A stretch of DNA of 64,000 nucleotides, from the sequence record MZ234052.1. One strand, 5' to 3'. The position numbers and the translations under genes are program-made. Shown here piece after piece: positions 53,952-61,583 of this stretch. The stretch is from Escherichia phage vB_EcoM-PM133. The stretch's first letter is position 1. Every line of letters begins with the position of its first letter. The notes beneath the pieces are model-generated. The model was given only the letters and a program-made list of their open reading frames with translations, had not been told where the DNA came from and made no database searches.

Positions 53952-53990
53952 GTTTACATACTGATGAGGTAGTGATACTATTACCTCATC
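53952..53990 (+). promoter_or_regulatory. early-type promoter (GTTTAC, 18 bp, TACTAT) with 9-bp dyad arms flanking the -10
   Basis: GATGAGGTA gtgatactat TACCTCATC. Confidence 0.5.
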
Positions 53991-54011
53991 AAAATTAATT
54001 AGGAAAATAAA

Positions 54012-54302
54012 ATGAAAACATTTAAAGAATTTACTTCTACTACAACTACCCCGGTTTCTACCATTACCGAAGCTACTCTTACTTCTGAAGTTATTAAAGC
54101 AAATAAATGACGAGAAGGTAAACCAATGATTAGTCTGGTTGATGGCGAAGAAATCAAAGGTACTGTTTATCTAGGTGATGGGTGGTCTGCTAAAAAGGAT
54201 GGTGCTACAATCGTTATCTCTCCTGCTGAAGAAACTGCGTTGTTTAAAGCTAAACACATTTCTGCGGCACATCTCAAGATTATTGCTAAAAATCTTTTGT
54301 AA
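54012..54302 (+). CDS. ipI-position internal-protein-like gene split by an in-frame TGA
   Basis: 32 codons starting MKTFKEF, then TGA followed by C, then 58 further in-frame codons (second ATG at 54126 has its own AAGG SD). Confidence 0.5.
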
Positions 54303-54321
54303 TAAACAATTTCACAAAGTT

Positions 54322-54359
54322 GTTTACATAGGGTTTTAGTTGTGATACTATTACCCTAT
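54322..54359 (+). promoter_or_regulatory. early-type promoter copy with dyad arms (ATAGGGT / ACCCTAT)
   Basis: 23-nt upstream module aatttcacaaagttgtttacata identical to the copy at 53939. Confidence 0.5.
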
Positions 54360-54385
54360 CAAAACAAAACCAAATGGAAATCAAA

Positions 54386-54619
54386 ATGAAAACTTACCAA
54401 GAATTTATTGCTGAAACTGCTGATGTAAAAGTTGAGTTTATTTACACTGGCAAGAAAGATAAAATGGGTGAAATGCCTCATGGAGTTCTTCGTGATGCAT
54501 TAGATAATTTCGGTCAACTCGCCGCAGAAGATTACGGTGATAAAATTGTTGTTACTGGTCCTGCTGCAGTTATTGAAAAATGGGCAGCAGAAAATAAATC
54601 AATTTTTCGTAAAAAATAA
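54386..54619 (+). CDS. internal-protein-like gene with capsid-targeting leader MKTYQEFIAE
   Basis: 77 aa from the ATG that gives the MKTYQEFIAE N-terminus. Confidence 0.65.
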   Translation: MKTYQEFIAETADVKVEFIYTGKKDKMGEMPHGVLRDALDNFGQLAAEDYGDKIVVTGPAAVIEKWAAENKSIFRKK

Positions 54620-54658
54620 GTTTACTTTTAGATAGGGTAGTGATACTATTACCCTATC
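54620..54658 (+). promoter_or_regulatory. early-type promoter with 9-bp dyad arms (GATAGGGTA gtgatactat TACCCTATC)
   Basis: GTTTAC, 18 bp, TACTAT. Confidence 0.5.
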
Positions 54659-54677
54659 TACTACTGAGGAGAATAAA

Positions 54678-54863
54678 ATGAAACGTTGTGAATTAATTCG
54701 AAATGTTGCTATTGCAATTTCTGCTTCCGCTTTCAGTTTTTCAATGTTTGTTGGATTTATATGCGGATTATTGACTACGGCAGAAAATGTTTTTTCACTT
54801 GTAGTAGCATTTTTAATTGGTTTAATTGCTATTGTTATGGATAAAATTTCTAAAGGTGAATAA
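54678..54863 (+). CDS. small hydrophobic (2-TM) protein
   Basis: 61 aa, SD GAGGAG. Confidence 0.5.
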   Translation: MKRCELIRNVAIAISASAFSFSMFVGFICGLLTTAENVFSLVVAFLIGLIAIVMDKISKGE

Positions 54864-58769: not shown

Positions 58770-59384
58770 ATGAAAATGAAAATGCAAAGTGATTTCAATT
58801 CAATGTTTGAAGAGTTCCAAAAACAGGTTGATGTTCCAGACCAATTACTAAATGCTCTTAAACGCATGGCAGAAGGACGTAATTACTATTGGGGGTCTTC
58901 ATATGAAACTGATGAAAGCCTTTCCGGAAGATTTTCTAGAGGTAAAAAGTCTTTAATACGTCCTGGAATACTCATTAACAGTATTGAATCAATTCATTCA
59001 TTGACGTGTGATTTTGATGTTGAATTTACTGATTTCATTTCTCCTGAATGGACGGTTTGTTATTTAAACGACGATTTTGATTATCTCGGTGTTTATAGTT
59101 TAAGTGACGCATGGTTTAAACGTAATTTACAAAAGTCAAATTTATTTTATATTGATACTACTGTAAAATTTCAGGGCAAGAAATATTTCTTTACTCTTAT
59201 AGTTGATTCTGAAACGAAGCATGAAAATAAACGTATTCTTAGTAAAAAGAATATCTTAACTATTGTTGATGATCTTTTTGATAAATTTGTAGAAAATCCC
59301 AATTTTGAAAGTGATTTATTACTAGAAAAATTTGTTAAGGAATGTAGAGAATATGTCAAAACCATCACTATACCTTCCAAGTAA
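58770..59384 (+). CDS. hypothetical protein
   Basis: 204 aa; C-terminal FVKECR motif shared with downstream genes. Confidence 0.5.
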   Translation: MKMKMQSDFNSMFEEFQKQVDVPDQLLNALKRMAEGRNYYWGSSYETDESLSGRFSRGKKSLIRPGILINSIESIHSLTCDFDVEFTDFISPEWTVCYLNDDFDYLGVYSLSDAWFKRNLQKSNLFYIDTTVKFQGKKYFFTLIVDSETKHENKRILSKKNILTIVDDLFDKFVENPNFESDLLLEKFVKECREYVKTITIPSK

Positions 59385-59745
59385 ACCTGTGAAGTATGAA
59401 CCAAAGCGTCAGATAATTTCTACTGATGTGTTAATAGGTCCTGTTATACTCATATCATTTGTAATTCTATTGATTATTGGAGGTGTTTTAGATGTTATGA
59501 CTGATATTGATTCTGGCGAAATACTTGTGTTAATGCTAATTCTTCCATTAATAGTTCCACTTTTATTAGTACCCGTAAATTGGGTAGGATACTGGTATCA
59601 AGGAAGACATTATCGTAAACGTGTACGTGATTGGAAAGCTCAGTGTAAAAAGATTAAAAAGGAACACCGGCTTAAGCTAGATATGTATGAATTTGATGAA
59701 ATTATGAAATTTGTTAAGGAATCACGATGCAAAAGCCAAAACTAA
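59353..59745 (+). CDS. small 2-TM membrane protein, family member 1
   Basis: about 130 aa from first ATG; two hydrophobic helices; C-terminal FVKESRCK. Confidence 0.5.
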   Translation: MSKPSLYLPSKPVKYEPKRQIISTDVLIGPVILISFVILLIIGGVLDVMTDIDSGEILVLMLILPLIVPLLLVPVNWVGYWYQGRHYRKRVRDWKAQCKKIKKEHRLKLDMYEFDEIMKFVKESRCKSQN

Positions 59746-60089
59746 ATAAAGTCAAATATTCGTTTCCTGAGGCACTATTAATTCTTGCTGTATCAGTATT
59801 TGCAGCTCTTGCGGGTAGTCTTATTGGATTGTTAATTGACTGTTTTATTTTAAATATCGACGGCACAGTAATTATAACAGAGGTTTGGAGTGAACTTCGT
59901 TTTACTATAGCGATTTCATTATTTTCATTCTTTGGTACCATGTTATATTTTCATTATGATAATTTTAAAATAAATTGGCAAAGAAAAAAGGATTACAAAA
60001 TACAATTAAAGGAATATAATAGCTATATGTCTTATATTGAAAAAGAATCAATGGAAGAGTTTGTGAGTGATTGTAGGAAAATTAAATGA
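59727..60089 (+). CDS. small 2-TM membrane protein, family member 2
   Basis: 120 aa; C-terminal EFVSDCRKIK. Confidence 0.5.
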   Translation: MQKPKLNKVKYSFPEALLILAVSVFAALAGSLIGLLIDCFILNIDGTVIITEVWSELRFTIAISLFSFFGTMLYFHYDNFKINWQRKKDYKIQLKEYNSYMSYIEKESMEEFVSDCRKIK

Positions 60090-60574
60090 TTTTAAAAACT
60101 CGCTGGTATGATTTAGATGATGGGGACGATGGCATTTCAGTTGATAGAGTTGACTGGAATGGTTGTTCTGAAGATATGAAAAATTTGTTGATTAGGGAGT
60201 TTAGAATGGGATATCAAGCAGCTAAGCCATTTACTGTAACAGATGATAAGTTCGTATGTATTCAAAACGGTCGCGCTAAGTTAACGAATGCTGATTGGTT
60301 CACAGATAAGAAGGTTCTTCTGTGGTATATCATTAGTCTTCCTATATCATCGTTCGTATTTTACTTTTTTATAAAAAATCCAATGGACAGAATAGGAGAT
60401 TGGGTTCTTTTAACTATACTTGTTAATATTTTTACAGCAGCAGTATTATCAGGAATATGGCGTATGTTCATTGAAATGCCATGGCGTTTACGCAGACAAC
60501 AAAAGATTTTTGATGAAAAGAAATATACTCAAAATTTAAATAACTTTATCACTGAATGCAGGAAATTAAAATGA
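60086..60574 (+). CDS. 2-TM membrane protein with N-terminal soluble domain, family member 3
   Basis: 162 aa; C-terminal NFITECRKLK. Confidence 0.5.
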   Translation: MILKTRWYDLDDGDDGISVDRVDWNGCSEDMKNLLIREFRMGYQAAKPFTVTDDKFVCIQNGRAKLTNADWFTDKKVLLWYIISLPISSFVFYFFIKNPMDRIGDWVLLTILVNIFTAAVLSGIWRMFIEMPWRLRRQQKIFDEKKYTQNLNNFITECRKLK

Positions 60575-61011
60575 AAACATTATCAGCTGGTATTATCTTT
60601 ATGACAGAAGATAAAGATTTATTTATGGGACGAGTTACCGGTTCTCGTAAACCTGGAATGATTGCACATCGCTGGGATATTCCAAAGGGGCGTGTAGAAA
60701 GTTCTGATTTGAATGCACTGGAAGCTGCAAAAAGAGAATGCTCAGAAGAGACTGGTTTTATCGATTATAATCCAGACCTTCTAGAAGACTTAGGTGTATT
60801 TAAATATTCTAGTAATAAAGACTTACAGTTATTTTATTATACGATTCCAGTAGAGCATGAGATGTTTAGAAATTGCCATTGCGAGTCTTATTTTGAAAAT
60901 AAAGATGGCGTTATGATTCCAGAGATGGATGCTTTTGCTCTTATTCCTCGTACTCAGTGGCAATATGTGATGGGTCCTTCACTTTACCGAATAATGAACA
61001 GCCTCTTTTAA
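60556..61011 (+). CDS. nudE: Nudix hydrolase (NudE-like)
   Basis: 151 aa; Nudix box G-x5-E-x7-REC-x-EETG. Confidence 0.8.
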   Translation: MQEIKMKTLSAGIIFMTEDKDLFMGRVTGSRKPGMIAHRWDIPKGRVESSDLNALEAAKRECSEETGFIDYNPDLLEDLGVFKYSSNKDLQLFYYTIPVEHEMFRNCHCESYFENKDGVMIPEMDAFALIPRTQWQYVMGPSLYRIMNSLF

Positions 61012-61024
61012 TTTATAAATACCT
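61004..61024 (+). promoter_or_regulatory. two tandem late promoter motifs (TATAAATA) upstream of lysozyme gene e
   Basis: tataaata at 61004-61011 and 61017-61024. Confidence 0.5.
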
Positions 61025-61047
61025 TCTATAAATACTTAGGAGGTATT

Positions 61048-61542
61048 ATGAATATATTTGAAATGTTACGTATAGATGAAGGTCTTAGACTTAAAATCTA
61101 TAAAGATACAGAAGGCTATTACACTATTGGCATTGGTCATTTGCTTACTAAAAGTCCATCATTAAGTGTTGCTAAATCTGAATTAGATAAAGCTATTGGG
61201 CGTAATTGCAATGGTGTAATTACAAAAGATGAGGCTGAAAAACTCTTTAATCAGGATGTTGATGCTGCTGTTCGTGGAATTTTGAGAAATGCTAAATTAA
61301 AACCAGTTTATGATTCTCTTGATGCTGTTCGTCGCTGTGCATTAATTAATATGGTTTTCCAAATGGGAGAAACTGGCGTAGCTGGATTCACTAACTCTTT
61401 GCGTATGCTTCAACAAAAACGCTGGGATGAAGCAGCAGTTAACTTAGCTAAAAGTAGATGGTATAATCAAACACCTAATCGCGCAAAACGAGTCATTGCA
61501 ACGTTTAGAACTGGCACTTGGGACGCGTATAAAAATCTATAA
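61048..61542 (+). CDS. e: endolysin (T4 lysozyme)
   Basis: 164 aa; [33 protein letters not shown]; differs from my recollection of T4 at a few residues. Confidence 0.97.
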
Positions 61543-61546
61543 AGTT

Positions 61547-61583
61547 GTTTACTTTCTCCTAGAATTGTGATAGTATATTCACA
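61547..61583 (+). promoter_or_regulatory. early-type promoter (GTTTAC, 18 bp, TAGTAT) with dyad TGTGA / TCACA across the -10
   Basis: upstream of denV. Confidence 0.45.

Follow-up and report, generated by a model that had tools for sequence, protein, structure and literature searches.

Repoila, Tetart, Bouet and Krisch (EMBO J 1994, 13:4181) reportedly found a ~70-bp sequence on both sides of most internal-protein (IP) open reading frames (ORFs), and this sequence is said to contain a T4 early promoter with an overlapping inverted-repeat symmetry. Here we analyze elements of this kind in a 64,000-nt stretch of Escherichia phage vB_EcoM-PM133 (record MZ234052.1; hereafter the window, numbered from its first letter), where several early promoters carry inverted repeats across the −10. 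A related class was defined in RB49 and phi1 by Arbiol et al. 2010 (PMC2839356) as 'promoter-early stem-loops' (PeSLs), strong early promoters with a stem-loop that in phi1 lies mostly between −35 and −10 or overlaps the −10. PeSLs were proposed to terminate or attenuate upstream transcription and to mediate cassette shuffling, with terminator activity shown experimentally for one phi1 stem only (PMC2839356). Repoila et al. 1994 are credited there with PeSL-like sequences at both T-even IP loci, described as T4 early promoters with A/T-rich stem-loops of variable size (PMC2839356), and Comeau et al. 2014 (PMC4122927) extended PeSLs to PST/T4 and nt-1/KVP40. A second precedent is the translational switch in which a promoter sits inside a hairpin, established for T4 e, soc, 49 and I-TevI (PMC3014915, PMC2988022); the known cases reviewed there are all late genes.

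The window comes from a T4-like coliphage. A tested 1.3 kb of it is 100% identical to Escherichia phage vB_EcoM-PM107 and 92–98% identical to many other Tequatrovirus phages, and the sites studied here fall in the two IP loci of a T-even phage. With the elements of 1994 they share these loci (after 57B, with ipI, and around e/denV, with ipII and ipIII) a repeat unit of ~60–70 nt holding a T4 early promoter and an overlapping inverted repeat, and a position beside ORFs starting with MKT(Y/F)(Q/K)EF; there is no structural difference from the 1994 elements as relayed by Arbiol et al. With PeSLs they have in common an intergenic A/T-rich region, a sigma-70-type early promoter, a stem-loop and a Shine-Dalgarno (SD) sequence, as well as clustering in hyperplastic regions beside indels and gene swaps. 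The PeSL authors class the T-even IP-locus elements as analogues of PeSLs, not homologues. Stems in the window differ from those of PeSLs in being A/T-richer, in lacking polyG/polyC tracts and in having no U-tract after the stem. They also lie across the −10, whereas the figure of PST PeSLs places the stems just upstream of the promoter (PMC4122927).

The feature is already known, then: T4 itself carries the same element, and no new kind of element is involved. Our addition is modest, namely evidence that the selected structure is strand-specific and that a helix covers the ribosome-binding site (RBS) at denV and at promoters of other genera. Neither a sense-strand (G:T versus A:C) test nor a cross-genus comparison was found in the accessible literature, which did not cover the 1994 paper. 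The reading that we favor, and consider reasonably probable, is that these are the known early-promoter/stem-loop cassettes of the T-even IP loci, acting as a sense-strand RNA hairpin in read-through transcripts and as a recombination joint.

A sequence-only reading of the window had listed five promoter sites of shared geometry, and all five are present. The pattern GTTTAC-N18-TA(C/G)TAT has exactly five matches in the window (53952, 54322, 54620, 57510 and 61547), all on the + strand, compared to 0.03 expected from shuffled sequences. Each carries TG two bases 5' of the −10 hexamer, making an extended −10. Relaxing the −10 to TAnnnT adds 6420, 58068 and the intragenic 51173. The sites show the hallmarks of sigma-70-type T4 early promoters (TTTACW, 17 nt, TAYWAT, TGn and an A/T-rich upstream region), and both the early promoter consensus quoted in PMC4122927 and the elements listed in PMC2988021 match them.

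At four of these promoters, inverted repeats flanking or spanning the −10 had been described. We scored the best perfect repeat with a loop of 3–20 nt in the 55 nt from each GTTTAC, using random 55-nt windows of the same sequence as control. All four repeats exist, and the best two are longer than claimed: at 53952 the arms are 10 bp (loop 10 nt), a length reached by 0.14% of random windows, and at 54620 they are 11 bp (loop 10 nt), a length found in 0/5000. The 7-bp arms at 54322 (loop 18 nt) are equaled by 8% of random windows, and the 5-bp TGTGA/TCACA arms at 61547 (loop 8 nt) by 56%. Two dyads (53952 and 54620) are beyond chance (P ~0.001), that at 54322 is suggestive, and that at 61547, as originally described, is non-significant. 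The site at 57510 has no dyad across the −10. Stem-loop inverted repeats with 10-, 11- and 7-bp arms across the −10 thus overlap three of the promoters.

These three form one repeat family of ~61 nt (53934–53994, 54304–54364 and 54602–54662). Element 1 (53934..53994, +) lies between 57B and ipI, with its −35 GTTTAC at 53952–53957 and its extended −10 GTGATACTAT at 53972–53981 (hexamer TACTAT, 53976–53981). Its arms, TGATGAGGTA (53962–53971) and TACCTCATCA (53982–53991), enclose the extended −10, and transcription would start near A53988. The sense RNA folds with −17.4 kcal/mol (z = −4.4), compared to −13.7 for the antisense RNA, and three additional pairs, two being G:U, form within its '−10 loop'. 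Element 2 (54304..54364, +) precedes the extra IP gene (54386–54619); it has its −35 at 54322–54327, its −10 at 54346–54351, and arms ATAGGGT (54328–54334) and ACCCTAT (54353–54359) around a loop of 18 nt, with an RNA fold of −16.8 kcal/mol (z = −3.5). Element 3 (54602..54662, +) stands before the trna.4 homologue (54678–54863), with its −35 at 54620–54625, its −10 at 54644–54649, arms TAGATAGGGTA (54629–54639) and TACCCTATCTA (54650–54660), and an RNA fold of −19.5 kcal/mol (z = −4.2). The elements are intergenic and co-oriented with the flanking genes, sit between an upstream stop and a downstream SD/ATG, and are repeated on both sides of small variable ORFs with an IP leader.

At the second IP locus, the early-type denV promoter (61547..61597, +; −35 at 61547–61552, −10 TAGTAT at 61571–61576, denV ATG at 61602) has a nested structure. 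The inner arms, AATTGTGA (61563–61570) and TCACAGTT (61579–61586), form an 8-bp stem with one T:G pair (U:G in RNA), and the outer arms are TTTCTCC (61553–61559) and GGAGGGA (61591–61597), the latter being the denV SD. The TGTGA/TCACA dyad is the tip of the 8-bp stem inside the outer helix, and the RNA fold of the whole is −18.8 kcal/mol (z = −3.97). A comparable arrangement is seen at the early-type promoter at 6420 (6420..6475, +; GTTTAC 6420–6425, TATAGT 6444–6449), directly after a 685-amino-acid ORF. There, spacer nucleotides 6428–6443 pair with 6460–6475, including the GAGGA SD of a 96-amino-acid ORF (6481–6771), in an interrupted helix of 16 positions with two G:U pairs and one C:A mismatch (−23 kcal/mol, z = −3.7). 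For the early-type promoter at 57510 (57510..57539, +), before the e.8 homologue (ATG 57582), the RNA fold is no better than shuffles (z = 0.23).

From two arm positions that differ in concert between the first two dyad sites, the sequence-only reading had argued that the symmetry itself is selected. These compensatory changes are real: between GATGAGGTA/TACCTCATC and GATAGGGTA/TACCCTATC, one pair goes from G-C to A-T and another from A-T to G-C. G:U intermediates between the two arm types occur naturally in relatives (TGATGAGGTA/TATCTCATCA and GATGGGGTA/TACCCTATC). Selection on the symmetry is borne out more broadly, as arms vary without loss of pairing, whether one compares copies in this genome or the orthologous promoter across genera. 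In T4, the core of the 57B-ipI element (−35, spacer, arms and −10) is identical to that of element 1. The T4 ipII promoter has a 14-bp dyad over the −10, TCCTAGAATTGTGA/TCACAATTCTAGGA, and the ipIII promoter (e-ipIII element), which is homologous to the denV element of the window, has the dyad AATTGTGA/TCACAATT, also over the −10. At the T4 denV promoter, spacer TCTCCTGTAG pairs with CTACAGGAGA, the denV SD, and 5' of T4 e.7 the geometry of element 2 recurs with other arms, ATAGGCT/AGCCTAT.

We further compared the locus after 57B in ten phages from eight genera or groups. Here, the symmetry proved to be conserved, whereas its absence at orthologous promoters would have refuted the sequence-only reading on that reading's own terms. 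In 8 of the 10 relatives, representing six genera, the promoter directly after 57B carries a hairpin across the −10, with differing arms; the carriers are Mosigvirus, Dhakavirus, Winklervirus, Marfavirus, an Enterobacter phage and three Tequatrovirus phages. The helix extends to the SD in the Winklervirus and Enterobacter phages. In a Tegunavirus phage, such a helix is confined to a promoter that lies two genes farther on and precedes a different gene, and no early-type promoter with a hairpin was found at the post-57B locus of a Gaprivervirus phage.

Larger collections of promoters show the same behavior. Scanning IMG/VR for GTTTAC-N14-GTGATACTAT yielded 112 loci (L001–L112) with 92 distinct elements, many of which have stems across the −10 with very different arms, such as GTGTAGGAGC/GCTCCTACAC, TGGTAGGAGC/GCTCCTACCA, TGGTAGAAGAC/GTCTTCTACCA, CCGGAAGT/ACTTCCGG and AGGGCTAT/ATAGCCCT. 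A second scan of viral contigs, with the upstream TTCACAAAGTTGTTTAC as anchor, retrieved contigs that were for the most part unrelated and contributed little. For a set of 146 non-redundant GTTTAC-N18-TAnnnT elements, mostly from viral contigs, we matched every spacer against the 45-nt downstream sequence of its own element and of other elements. Complementarity of at least 8 bp was seen for 15% of cognate versus 1% of non-cognate pairs, and complementarity of at least 6 bp for 41% versus 14%. In the commonest register, the dyad axis falls on the first base of the −10 hexamer, and at least 6/8 Watson-Crick pairs are formed in 20/146 elements (partner permutation: mean 2.8, maximum 8). Among 20 distinct elements of this class, both sides have changed at each of the 11 stem pairs, giving 28 additional pair types, and slid registers score far lower. 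Because this alignment was chosen for pairing, the percentage paired is circular, and only the covariation counts were used. Arm sequence, loop length (6 to 28 nt) and register vary from site to site. The IMG/VR loci also show, at +30 to +44 from GTTTAC, a loose consensus after the −10 that is present with or without a stem (e.g. CCTATCAA or CTTACACCAAC). The 3' arm therefore seems to be constrained by the promoter/start region, with the spacer being the side that adapts to it.

Mismatches within these helices indicate which strand is under constraint. A G:T pair on the + strand is a G:U pair in mRNA-sense RNA, but a C:A mismatch on the opposite strand. We searched unselected elements for helices, treating G:T and A:C alike, and tallied those isolated transition mismatches that have Watson-Crick pairs on either side. 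Helices with at least nine Watson-Crick pairs contained 18 G:T versus 2 A:C mismatches, and those with at least eight contained 19 versus 4. In chance helices formed with non-cognate partners, 54% were G:T (binomial p = 2e-4). The excess of G:T over A:C argues for constraint on the sense strand alone, and the selected structure is strand-specific, hence most likely RNA. Three further results agree with a constraint on the sense strand: the G:U intermediates found in relatives, the better fold and extra pairs of the sense RNA of element 1, and the fact that many of the helices, at viral loci and in relatives, end exactly on the SD.

The alternative that fares best against these data holds that the elements serve recombination and that the RNA plays no role, either because repeated homology is all that matters or because, as T4 undergoes recombination-dependent replication, single-stranded DNA folds into a sense-strand hairpin that directs strand exchange or cleavage to the site. 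Several observations speak for recombination. Relative to T4, the window has an extra 298-bp cassette with the IP gene 54386–54619, bracketed by a 19-bp direct repeat, GTGATACTATTACCCTATC (54342–54360 and 54640–54658, +; 298 bp apart). The repeat consists of the −10/loop and the 3' arm. The cassette junction lies exactly in conserved loop/3'-arm sequence, and this repeat within promoter/loop sequence may well have been the crossover site. The single ipI-trna.4 element of T4 equals element 2 in its 5' half and continues directly into the 3' flank of element 3, and association with cassette gain, loss or exchange is evident among close relatives. Two IMG/VR loci, L044 and L076, are chimeras that combine the arms of two elements, a 'ATAGGGTA'-type 5' arm facing a 'TACCTCAT'-type 3' arm, and their stem is broken; L076 additionally has a tandem duplication of ACTATTACCTCATCAA. 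Cassette bracketing and chimeric elements are the behavior proposed for PeSLs, and the PeSL papers (PMC2839356, PMC4122927) make a case for recombination at elements of this type, with excised mini-circles detected. DNA hairpins, moreover, tolerate G:T. However, homology alone leaves the compensatory changes unexplained, recombination intermediates expose both strands, making strand specificity unexpected, and helices that extend precisely over SD sequences point to a function at the RNA level. We therefore consider recombination without a role for the RNA unlikely, while retaining the recombination joint as part of the reading that we favor.

The sequence-only reading itself had proposed a DNA-level operator or cruciform, an inference that overlooked transcripts starting upstream and crossing the promoter. 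A cruciform needs pairing on both strands and a short spacer, and a repressor needs a constant half-site; either a cruciform or a protein site in duplex DNA would place equal constraint on the two strands. Given 18 G:T versus 2 A:C mismatches, arms, loops and register that vary, and a spacer of at least 10 nt, both DNA-level readings are therefore disfavored. In the cruciform version, supercoiling would extrude the inverted repeat, the −10 would leave its duplex form, and the promoter would be throttled. A dyad axis that in the commonest register falls where the −10 begins would suit this, and both DNA strands can fold. But each DNA hairpin is worth just ~−8 kcal/mol, the extra G:U pairs are confined to the sense strand, and the reach of many helices to the SD would be meaningless for a DNA structure. 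The central unpaired spacer is 10 nt here and 6–28 nt in relatives, and a long central spacer strongly disfavors cruciform extrusion. Horwitz and Loeb (Science 1988) are said to have engineered a promoter throttled by a supercoil-driven cruciform, with an inverted repeat centered, as in the elements here, on the −10 region of a sigma-70 promoter. That construct was reportedly a near-perfect palindrome with minimal spacer, in contrast to the spacer of at least 10 nt and the one-strand constraint of the phage elements. We regard a cruciform as very improbable.

An operator, bound over the −10 by a dimeric phage or host protein that represses the early promoters, is if anything less credible still. 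Its location would be typical of repressor sites, and T4 early transcription does shut off a few minutes after infection by a mechanism that is incompletely explained. Yet arms differ at every position between sites, both within one genome and between orthologous sites, with complementarity alone being kept. Arm spacing and register are variable as well, the mismatches are strand-specific, and 126/146 early-type promoters are without such a dyad in the main register. The useful negative here is that the element is not worth pursuing as an operator or cruciform. Finally, the notion that these are functionless chance palindromes spread by duplication of promoter cassettes, for which one could cite the paralogy of the three local copies and the chance-level 5-bp dyad at 61566–61583, is already contradicted by the covariation of all 11 pairs among many independent arm sequences, by the ~15-fold enrichment of cognate over non-cognate pairs at 8 bp or more, and by retention of the hairpin at the same locus across six genera.

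How might an RNA hairpin arise at a promoter? Under the favored reading, each copy would be a strong sigma-70-type early promoter (A/T-rich upstream region, GTTTAC, TGn, TACTAT) whose −35/−10 spacer has evolved complementarity to the sequence just 3' of the −10. That the promoter's own transcript would be free of the hairpin had been proposed in the sequence-only reading, and our analysis supports this: the start that we infer lies ~7 nt after the −10 hexamer, inside the 3' arm, with the −10 in the loop, and the promoter's own RNA should therefore be unable to make the stem. Such RNA would have a short, unstructured leader. RNA begun further upstream, by contrast, would hold both arms and form a hairpin with the −10 as its loop. 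In T4, its source could be the middle promoters P1 and P57A, or else the preceding cassette. On the strand that carries the T4 ipI element, the middle promoters P1 (75393) and P57A (74877) have been mapped 5' of it, and the e-ipIII element is preceded by PipIII (66724). A consensus terminator scan predicted no intrinsic terminator in 53400–56793, the listed ones being at 56793 and 57348. With the genes co-oriented, no terminator predicted and middle promoters upstream in T4, read-through RNA containing both arms is therefore expected.

This geometry fits the T4 e, soc, 49 and I-TevI switches, in which the hairpin forms only in RNA started upstream and the RNA of the internal promoter is without the 5' arm. 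As in those switches, the 3' arm covers the SD at denV (61547), at 6420 and in several relatives, with support from unpaired probabilities for denV only. In contrast to them, the internal promoter here is of the early type, and the three IP-locus hairpins leave the RBS uncovered. To gauge accessibility, we calculated the predicted probability that the translation start region (−14 to +3) is unpaired in read-through RNA and in the promoter's own RNA. For denV (61547), the values are 0.21 and 0.72, respectively, making this the only clear case of SD sequestration by the 3' arm. The start region of e.8 (57510) shows 0.38 and 0.81, a weak case given that its fold is no better than shuffles. Differences are smaller for ipI (53952; 0.69 and 0.73), the extra IP gene (54322; 0.72 and 0.77), trna.4 (54620; 0.61 and 0.73) and ORF 6481–6771 (6420; 0.46 and 0.55). 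At denV, then, the helix over the SD would silence translation of read-through RNA.

The three IP-locus hairpins lie 9–20 nt 5' of the RBS, where they would mark and insulate the read-through RNA. They could attenuate this RNA, act after processing as a barrier at its 3' end, or insulate translation; a role as attenuator or 3'-end barrier between cassettes is the most likely. As intrinsic terminators, the promoter hairpins were rejected, since the consensus scan calls none there, a U-tract is missing and the 3' flanks are A/C-rich. Searches of 53400–62400 with Rfam 15 returned only tRNA matches (55649–56473) at the gathering score and none at the promoter hairpins; sub-threshold matches all fell in the tRNA cluster (55649–56474). 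At the DNA level, the conserved promoter/loop sequence would provide homology for inserting, deleting or swapping small gene cassettes.

Several points weigh against this account. Pairing, covariation, strand specificity and cassette junctions are shown directly, whereas start sites, read-through RNA and the effect of the hairpin are inferred for this phage. Masking of the RBS is unsupported at 53952, 54322 and 54620, where the start region is unpaired with probability 0.61–0.72 in read-through RNA versus 0.73–0.77 in the promoter's own. At 6420, the minimum-energy fold pairs the SD, yet accessibility barely shifts (0.46 versus 0.55). A terminator role of the hairpins at 53952, 54322 and 54620, like that of the G/C-rich PeSL stem of phi1, is at best putative, with A/C-rich sequence after them in place of a U-tract. 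The mismatch counts come from related sequences of incomplete independence, and a recount minus one homologous pair gives ~15 G:T versus 3 A:C. A hairpin in sense-strand DNA could leave the same bias, as G:T is the best-tolerated mismatch in single-stranded DNA too. Lastly, the natural contigs L044 and L076 carry recombinant elements with mismatched arms, and given these the hairpin is dispensable at least in the short term.

The surrounding genes, all co-oriented on the + strand, are in order gene 1, 57A and 57B; the ipI homologue; the extra IP gene; trna.4, trna.3 and trna.2; the tRNA cluster; a further IP-like gene; e.8 to nudE; e (lysozyme) and denV; and two more IP genes. IP ORFs flanked by the elements begin with MKT(Y/F)(Q/K)EF. 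The ipI homologue (54012–54302) has one Thr codon more than in T4 and is cut by an in-frame TGA (54108–54110) at a Gly codon of T4, leaving a 32-amino-acid ORF (the leader and a few residues) and a 58-amino-acid ORF. Therefore, this phage probably does not produce the anti-restriction protein IPI. Directly 5' of element 1, gene 57B (53481–53939) is labeled 'RNA ligase' in RefSeq records and annotated as the anti-CBASS protein Acb1 in one relative. Taking this annotation together with the IP genes, several anti-defense genes therefore cluster at this locus.

Farther along, a strong intrinsic terminator, AGCCCCGACC(G/A)AAAGGTTGGGGCTTTTT, is present in two 94%-identical copies (56790–56825 and 57345–57380) flanking an IP-like ORF (56867–57340; leader MKSYTQFLNEA). 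This ORF has no counterpart in T4 between its small RNAs and e.8, and it resembles a cassette bounded by terminator repeats instead of promoter repeats. The second IP locus (61048–62835) is rearranged relative to T4: the order here is e, denV and two IP genes (62028–62345 and 62362–62835), compared to e, ipIII, ipII and denV in T4. Downstream of e, the homologue of the T4 e-ipIII element now serves as the promoter of denV, and a new SD pairs with its spacer.

Injected anti-restriction proteins are encoded at the IP loci, which rank with the most plastic regions of T-even genomes. It is at the promoter/stem-loop cassettes that IP genes are proposed to be swapped, and these cassettes hence bear on host-range evolution and on phage engineering. 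The helix over the RBS links PeSL-type cassettes, in a testable way, to the classical T4 control of translation by a promoter within a hairpin. It is possible, though we advance this only tentatively, that perhaps 15–40% of T4-type early promoters are nested in sense-strand RNA hairpins, yielding two kinds of mRNA per gene. If so, promoter-proximal RNA would have an open leader, while read-through RNA would be insulated by the hairpin or have its RBS masked. This would be the early-gene counterpart of the e, soc, 49 and I-TevI switch, and translation of accessory genes would be confined to the minutes during which the early promoters fire.

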